Shown piece after piece: positions 1 through 840 of a stretch of 840 bases of DNA. This stretch comes from Escherichia coli (lineage in GTDB: Bacteria; Pseudomonadota; Gammaproteobacteria; Enterobacterales; Enterobacteriaceae). Every line of letters begins with the position of its first letter. Within the stretch, counting starts at the first letter, position 1. The notes under the pieces are model-generated. The model did no database searches, was not told where the DNA came from, and saw nothing but the letters and a program-made list of their open reading frames with translations. The stretch is from the NCBI RefSeq assembly GCF_003334335.1, contig NZ_QOWQ01000147.1. One strand, written 5' to 3'. Position numbers and translations under genes: made by a program.

Positions 1-471
1 CAGAAAGGGCTTATCGCATGGTTTGAAAGCGGGGATGTCAGGGCCTATAAAATCCGGTTCCCGAATGGTACGGTGGATGTGTTCAGTGGCTGGGTCAGCA
101 GTATCGGTAAGGCCGTGACGGCGAAGGAAGTGATCACCAGAACGGTGAAAGTTACCAATGTGGGACGCCCGTCGATGGCTGAAAATCTCACTAAAATTAC
201 GCCGGTTTCCGGTGTGACCATTAAACCGGAAACCCTGACCCTAGAAAAGGGGAAGGCAGGCACACTTACTGTGGCTGTGTTGCCGGATAATGCGTCTGAT
301 CCTTCATTAAGGGTGTCGACCGTGCATCGTGCGGTGGCCACAGCCACGTTGAAGGAGAACACAGTGACGGTAAACGCACTTGAGAAAGGAACAACGTCGG
401 TCGTGGTCATGAGTGATAACGGTAATTTTGTTGCTCTGGCGACAGTAACCGTTAATGTCCCTGCCGCGTAA
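1..471 (+). CDS. V: Phage major tail (tube) protein, gpV-like, 5'-partial: C-terminal part of the tube domain followed by an Ig-like (Big_2-type) domain
   Basis: Seen in sequence: frame 1 is open from position 1 (no stop before the ATG at 73), so the 73..471 ORF in the track is only the in-window part of a longer gene that starts upstream. Translation from position 1 reads [61 protein letters not shown]..., which I recognise from memory as closely matching the corresponding region of phage lambda major tail protein V. The C-terminal ~110 aa (...[13 protein letters not shown]...[33 protein letters not shown]) has the alternating hydrophobic/Thr-Val-rich beta-strand pattern of a Big_2 Ig-like domain. 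TAA stop at 469..471. No database search was run. Confidence 0.9.
142..468 (+). other. C-terminal Ig-like (Big_2-type) domain of the major tail protein; boundaries approximate
   Basis: Inference from sequence composition and pattern: beta-strand-like T/V/A-rich segments, a conserved-looking 'NxGxxxV/ATVTV' C-terminal strand, and position at the C-terminus of a gpV-like protein, where lambda V is known to carry an Ig-like domain. Domain boundaries were not computed with an HMM. Confidence 0.6.
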
Positions 472-480
472 CGGGTGTTT

Positions 481-485
481 AGGAG
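481..485 (+). promoter_or_regulatory. Shine-Dalgarno / ribosome-binding site for the downstream chaperone gene
   Basis: Seen in sequence: AGGAG at 481..485, 7 nt upstream of the ATG at 493..495, which is canonical spacing; it lies in the 21-nt V-G intergenic spacer. Confidence 0.7.
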
Positions 486-492
486 AACACGC

Positions 493-840
493 ATGTTTCT
501 TAAAACAGAACAATTTGAATATAACGGTGTGTCTGTCACGCTTTCGGAGCTGTCTGCGCTGCAGCGTATCGAGCATCTTGCCCTGCTGAAACGGCGGGCA
601 GAAGAGGCTGAAGCCAGCGGCAACCTGCAGGTGAGTGTGGAAGATCTTGTCAGAACCGGCGCGTTTCTGGTGGCGATGTCCCTGTGGCATAACCATCCGG
701 AGAAAGTGCAGCTGCTGTCAATGAATGAGGCCGTGATGCAGATCGAACAGGATGTGCTGACGACCTGGCCGGCTGATGCCATTGCCCGGGCGGAAGAGGT
801 GGTGTTACGTCTGTCCGGGATGAGCGGGGCTGTTCATGCG
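493..840 (+). CDS. G: Phage tail assembly chaperone, gpG-like, 3'-partial (continues beyond the window end)
   Basis: Seen in sequence: ATG at 493 preceded by an SD motif; frame 1 is open through position 840 (116 codons, no stop). Translation MFLKTEQFEYNGVSVTLSELSALQRIEHLALLKRRAEEAEASGNLQVSVEDLVRTGAFLVAMSLWHNHPEKVQLLSMNEAVMQIEQDVLTTWPADAIARAEEVVLRLSGM... matches, from memory, the lambda tail assembly chaperone G along nearly its whole in-window length (lambda G begins MFLKTESFEHNGVTVTLSELSALQRIEHLAL...). The position immediately downstream of the major tail protein gene is the conserved lambdoid gene order V-G-(G-T)-H. Confidence 0.92.
   Translation, partial: MFLKTEQFEYNGVSVTLSELSALQRIEHLALLKRRAEEAEASGNLQVSVEDLVRTGAFLVAMSLWHNHPEKVQLLSMNEAVMQIEQDVLTTWPADAIARAEEVVLRLSGMSGAVHA

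Follow-up and report, generated by a model that had tools for sequence, protein, structure and literature searches.

The closest described system to the DNA analysed here is the tail gene cluster of phage lambda, in whose record the genes run in the order E-FI-FII-Z-U-V-G-T-H. In lambda gpV, the boundary between the domains gpVN and gpVC lies at residues 156/157, and removal of gpVC lowers activity ~100-fold while tails still form (PMC8718954). The same source, citing Fraser et al. 2006, describes phage-tail Ig-like domains as promiscuously shuffled and as proposed weak binders of cell-surface carbohydrates. The slippery sequence of lambda G/GT is GGGAAAG (PMC3296357). In that article, gpGT is stated to arise in ~4% of translations (Levin et al. 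1993, cited therein), the amount of gpG relative to gpGT is stated to matter, both proteins are described as needed for tail assembly, and both are described as absent from the finished lambda tail.

We analysed an 840-nt stretch of DNA, referred to as the window, together with the genes that surround it in related records. The window almost certainly comes from a temperate, lambda-like siphophage of E. coli and is the V-G junction of its late (tail) operon, and nothing in the analysis contradicted this reading.

Identity of the window

A megablast search of phage records matched the window to phage PhiR5_1 (PV340545.1, 34888-35727) at 840/840 nt (100% identity), where the record carries the labels 'major tail protein V' and 'tail component protein G'. 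An earlier note, made from the sequence without database searches, had placed the window at the V-G junction of a lambdoid tail module, and the identity to PhiR5_1 with its annotation bears this out. Four PhiR12 phages (PhiR12_1, _2, _4 and _5), which belong to the same GenBank series as PhiR5_1 (PV340545-PV340554), matched the whole window at 96% nucleotide identity by megablast, and lambda and its relatives gave partial matches in the phage records, with 57% coverage and ~84% identity. In the literature collection searched, no paper describing the PhiR5_1/PhiR12 phages was found.

A search of 5426 complete E. coli genomes recovered the whole window from 14, at 96-99.9% nucleotide identity, and all 14 carried the label 'phage tail protein' followed by 'gpG: phage tail assembly chaperone G'. 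Identity over the full window was 99.5-99.9% for prophages that included those of E. coli EC2 and S1-KEN-03-A, and some portion of the window was matched in 3689 of the 5426 genomes. The window is known sequence, namely lambda-type phage DNA that has already been deposited and annotated, and its earlier description as ordinary conserved phage structural DNA was correct. PhiR5_1 and an equivalent prophage fit equally as the source of the window, which could be either.

One record among the matches stood apart by its label. MW057783.1, 'Campylobacter phage CJLB-4' (48,361 bp, host Campylobacter jejuni), equalled lambda in coverage, identity and bit score against the window, with V and G at lambda-like coordinates. 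The record resembles a lambda genome and is possibly a case of contamination or mislabelling.

Genes V and G

V is read in frame +1, which stays open from the first base until the TAA stop codon at 469-471, a total of 157 codons. Another 276 nt of the gene lie upstream of the window, and positions 1-471 hold only V residues 93-248. On the plus strand, positions 1-180 cover the 3' part of the sequence for the N-terminal tail-tube domain (V residues 93-152; Pfam Phage_TTP_12, lambda gpV, PDB 2k4q/6p3e), and positions 181-471 encode the linker, a divergent allele of the C-terminal Big_2 Ig-like domain (Pfam Big_2, PDB 2l04) and the stop codon. Reading of the sequence identified a V-G intergenic spacer of 21 nt (472-492, plus strand) with the Shine-Dalgarno motif AGGAG at 481-485, 7 nt ahead of the ATG of G. 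The tail assembly chaperone gene G (Pfam Phage_TAC_2, lambda G) begins with this ATG at 493, on the same strand as V, and runs off the window end at 840 after codons 1-116 of 143. The canonical order V then G on one strand and the tight spacing were as the earlier note had given them.

The full V protein has 248 aa. Profile searches, of the kind that the note had proposed for both proteins, aligned V residues 18-152 with the complete Phage_TTP_12 model (PF16461, model 1-135/135, E 3.9e-69) and V residues 161-241 (window 205-447) with Big_2 (PF02368, model 2-79/79, E 4.5e-11). V also matched PHROG 41, 'major tail protein' (E 1.7e-111). Among solved structures, full V matched lambda gpV in PDB 6p3e (E 7e-106), its N-domain matched 2k4q (E 3.4e-87), and its Ig-like domain matched 2l04, the lambda gpV C-terminal domain (E 6.5e-11). 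The V fragment of the window alone matched lambda V by BLASTP (E 6e-59), and residues 93-152 were identical to lambda gpV 93-152 at 53/60 positions. The assignment of V to its family is supported by the profile, by the Big_2 decoration domain and by the position of the gene after U and before G and the tape-measure gene. The note's match of the coding region to V stands, with the qualification that the Ig-like domain is a swapped rare allele only ~35% identical to that of lambda.

G (143 aa) aligned over residues 1-121 with Phage_TAC_2 (PF06894, model 1-121/126, E 1e-48) and had 65% amino acid identity to lambda G (E 3e-65), confirming the second match. It also matched PHROG 42/32165, 'minor tail protein'. 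A PDB sequence search with G found no solved relative (best E 0.17). Family membership of G is supported by the profile, by its position in the order V-G-T-H and by a slippery heptamer in phase with an open -1 frame, described below.

The remainder of the window was searched for other features. A promoter/terminator scan of the window found no promoter-like or terminator-like site, which is consistent with co-transcription of V and G in the interior of a long late operon. An Rfam scan of both strands of the window at E<=1 found no RNA family, and a repeat scan found no inverted repeats. The only direct repeats in the window were two short, two-copy repeats of 75-83% identity, which we judged to be due to chance.

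The G-T frameshift signal

GGGAAAG had no match inside the 840-nt window. In PhiR5_1 the heptamer lies 60 nt past the window end, at window-equivalent positions 900-906 (8900-8906 of the extracted region). Relative to the G start at 8493 of the extracted region, its phase is G GGA AAG (X XXY YYZ). Translation in the -1 frame from this site meets no stop over 154 codons and gives a sequence with 72% identity to lambda T, and the sequence context of the site, tctgcGGGAAAGt[g/t]ttcgacgg, nearly matches that of lambda. On sequence grounds, the programmed G-T frameshift is very probably retained in PhiR5_1, with its signal outside the window.

The T region occupies 8900-9364 of the PhiR5_1 extract (window-equivalent 900-1364) and 20951-21364 of the EC2 extract. 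T is annotated as a separate CDS in both GenBank PV340545.1 and RefSeq, starting in PhiR5_1 from an internal ATG at 8951 of the extracted region. Since the heptamer is conserved and the -1 frame is open, T is probably made as a G-T fusion. These features indicate that T is a putative frameshift product, as in lambda, and that the free-standing T CDS reflects annotation convention, not biology.

Gene neighbourhood

We examined the genes flanking the window in PhiR5_1 and in the EC2 prophage. In PhiR5_1 the order is A, W, B, C/Nu3, D, E, FI, FII, Z, U, V, G, T, H, M, L, K, I, J, with terminase A and portal B at the head end, which is the exact lambda order. The E. coli EC2 chromosome has the same order, preceded by the genes for Q antiterminator, holin, lysozyme and the terminase small subunit. 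The neighbours that had been predicted from the window, U/Z upstream and T and the tape-measure gene H downstream, were found in both, with head genes farther upstream and M, L, K, I and J beyond H. As the note proposed, the window serves reliably to anchor a lambdoid tail module, whether of a prophage or of a phage, and its neighbours were rightly predicted.

Some annotations in the flanks were irregular. The PhiR5_1 record divides H into two adjoining CDS (9345-11678 and 11678-11917, extract coordinates), and the 99.9%-related EC2 prophage has a single H CDS of 2523 nt (EC2 extract 21345-23867). The split may stem from a frameshift or from a sequencing error, or H may be a length variant in the phage record. 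Tail gene I of the EC2 prophage is annotated as frameshifted (EC2 extract 25642-26222). Downstream of the EC2 tail-fibre genes, positions 33091-39255 of the extract hold a YadA C-terminal-domain protein, a 4-kb S6-family (SPATE-type) autotransporter peptidase and then an IS3 transposase. These genes may represent virulence cargo carried at the end of the prophage; alternatively, they may mark its boundary.

Mosaic structure of V and G

Segments of the window were delimited by DNA alignment with lambda and with PhiR12_2_star. At the end of the V tube domain (1-180), nucleotide identity was 84% to lambda and 87% to PhiR12_2_star. Across the V Ig-like domain (181-468) it was 49% and 54%, respectively, and across the V-G spacer (472-492) it was 19% and 43%, the spacer not being alignable with that of lambda. 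Within gene G (493-822) identity was 79% to lambda and 93% to PhiR12_2_star. The left edge of the drop falls at window position ~186, which corresponds to V residue ~154. On the left the junction coincides with the border between gpVN and gpVC, and on the right it coincides with the beginning of G.

Three Ig-domain alleles were found between similar flanks, in the window and PhiR5_1, in lambda and in PhiR12_2_star. The Ig-like domain of the window had ~35% amino acid identity to lambda, and the closest one in the phage records outside the PhiR5/PhiR12 group was that of phi80, at 48%. By megablast, the segment spanning the Ig-like domain and spacer (186-492) occurred in 14 of the 5426 complete E. 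coli genomes, at least 99% identical in all of them. Judged from these alignments, the Ig-like domain and spacer are a separate mosaic cassette, swapped by recombination in the standard lambdoid exchange of modules.

Within G, positions 502-698 form a 197-nt run that is 100% identical to PhiR12_2_star. The run is flanked on the left by the unrelated V Ig domain and on the right by G sequence of lower identity, with clustered differences from ~699. This suggests a further putative recombination patch within G.

Coding evidence and alternative explanations

We examined how the differences from relatives were distributed over codon positions. Against lambda, 17/28 differences in the V N-domain part and 39/68 in G fell at codon position 3, and differences from PhiR12_2_star had the same excess in both plus-strand frames. 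In the V N-domain part, 13 codon changes relative to lambda were synonymous and 7 were replacements; in G the two classes were equal, at 27 each. The bias towards codon position 3 is the pattern expected of real coding sequence under purifying selection.

The better-surviving alternative is that the window belongs to a decayed or cryptic prophage remnant, or to a domesticated tail-like element, in which V and G no longer build infectious phage. Many lambdoid prophages of E. coli are defective. Lambdoid V/G-like DNA, often in several copies, was what the matches in the 3689 complete genomes represented, and the frameshifted annotation of gene I in the EC2 prophage also points in this direction. 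Against this, the window matches at 100% identity a complete phage genome on deposit that has E. coli C entered as its host, the V and G frames are intact with the third-position substitution bias just described, and the full set of head, tail and lysis genes is present. We consider decay or domestication very unlikely, and the reading as the V-G junction of a lambda-like temperate siphophage is preferred.

The possibility that a minus-strand ORF at 45-782 (245 aa) or 307-696 (129 aa) is a genuine gene that overlaps V and G was rejected as negligible. In favour of the former, no complete ORF in the window is longer. Against both, they run across the end of V, the spacer and the beginning of G, neither has a PHROG family match, the substitutions relative to relatives track the codon phase of the plus-strand genes and are in the wrong phase for the minus-strand ORFs, and a minus-strand gene is annotated here in none of the records examined. 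The 245-aa ORF most likely arises from codon composition.

Discussion

The analysis established the identity of the genes, their domain content, the gene order and the conserved frameshift heptamer. The mechanism set out here is carried over from lambda, and the functions of V and G from lambda proteins that are 56-65% identical. By this analogy, V would polymerise into hexameric rings that stack around the tape-measure protein H and give a non-contractile tail tube, as the N-domain part of V is close in sequence (88% identity) to lambda gpV, the tube structure of which has been solved. The N-terminal domain of V would build the tube wall, with the C-terminal Big_2 domain on the outside. G and G-T would bind, coat and solubilise H, and G-T would recruit V. 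The tube would then grow to the length set by H and be terminated by U, and G and G-T would both be missing from the virion.

Beyond annotation the window matters little, and it holds nothing new biologically. The only feature mildly out of the ordinary is the small Ig-like domain of V, which faces outward and is present in a rare form. We suggest, tentatively and as a rather unlikely possibility, that this rare Big_2 cassette is an exchangeable surface-adhesion module. If true, the cassette would provide a weak-binding specificity unlike that of lambda gpVC rather than being a neutral variant, and its possible targets would include, for example, a given type of O-antigen, of capsule or of gut mucin glycan. 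The window also offers a clean textbook case of mosaicism in lambdoid phages: a protein domain boundary marks one recombination junction, and a gene boundary marks the other. It is a reminder, too, that the GenBank and RefSeq records mis-annotate T by giving it as a gene of its own instead of as the G-T frameshift product.

Compared with known systems, the V protein of the window shares with lambda gpV (PDB 2K4Q, 2L04, 6P3E, 8IYK) the two-domain architecture of Phage_TTP_12 followed by a C-terminal Big_2 domain, the genomic place between U and G, and 88% of amino acids in the N-domain part, and the proteins are of similar length (248 aa in the window, 246 aa in lambda). The V-G spacer differs, being 21 nt in the window and 15 nt in lambda, 6 nt longer and of unrelated sequence. 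G resembles lambda gpG/gpGT in its Phage_TAC_2 domain, in its place between V and the tape-measure gene and in the GGGAAAG heptamer and its phase; it has 143 aa where lambda gpG has 140 aa, and the last ~25 C-terminal residues ahead of the slip site have diverged between the two. PhiR12_2_star differs from the window in carrying the third Ig-domain allele, between flanks that are 87-93% identical. PhiR5_1, the PhiR12 group and the E. coli prophages have no substantial difference from the window.
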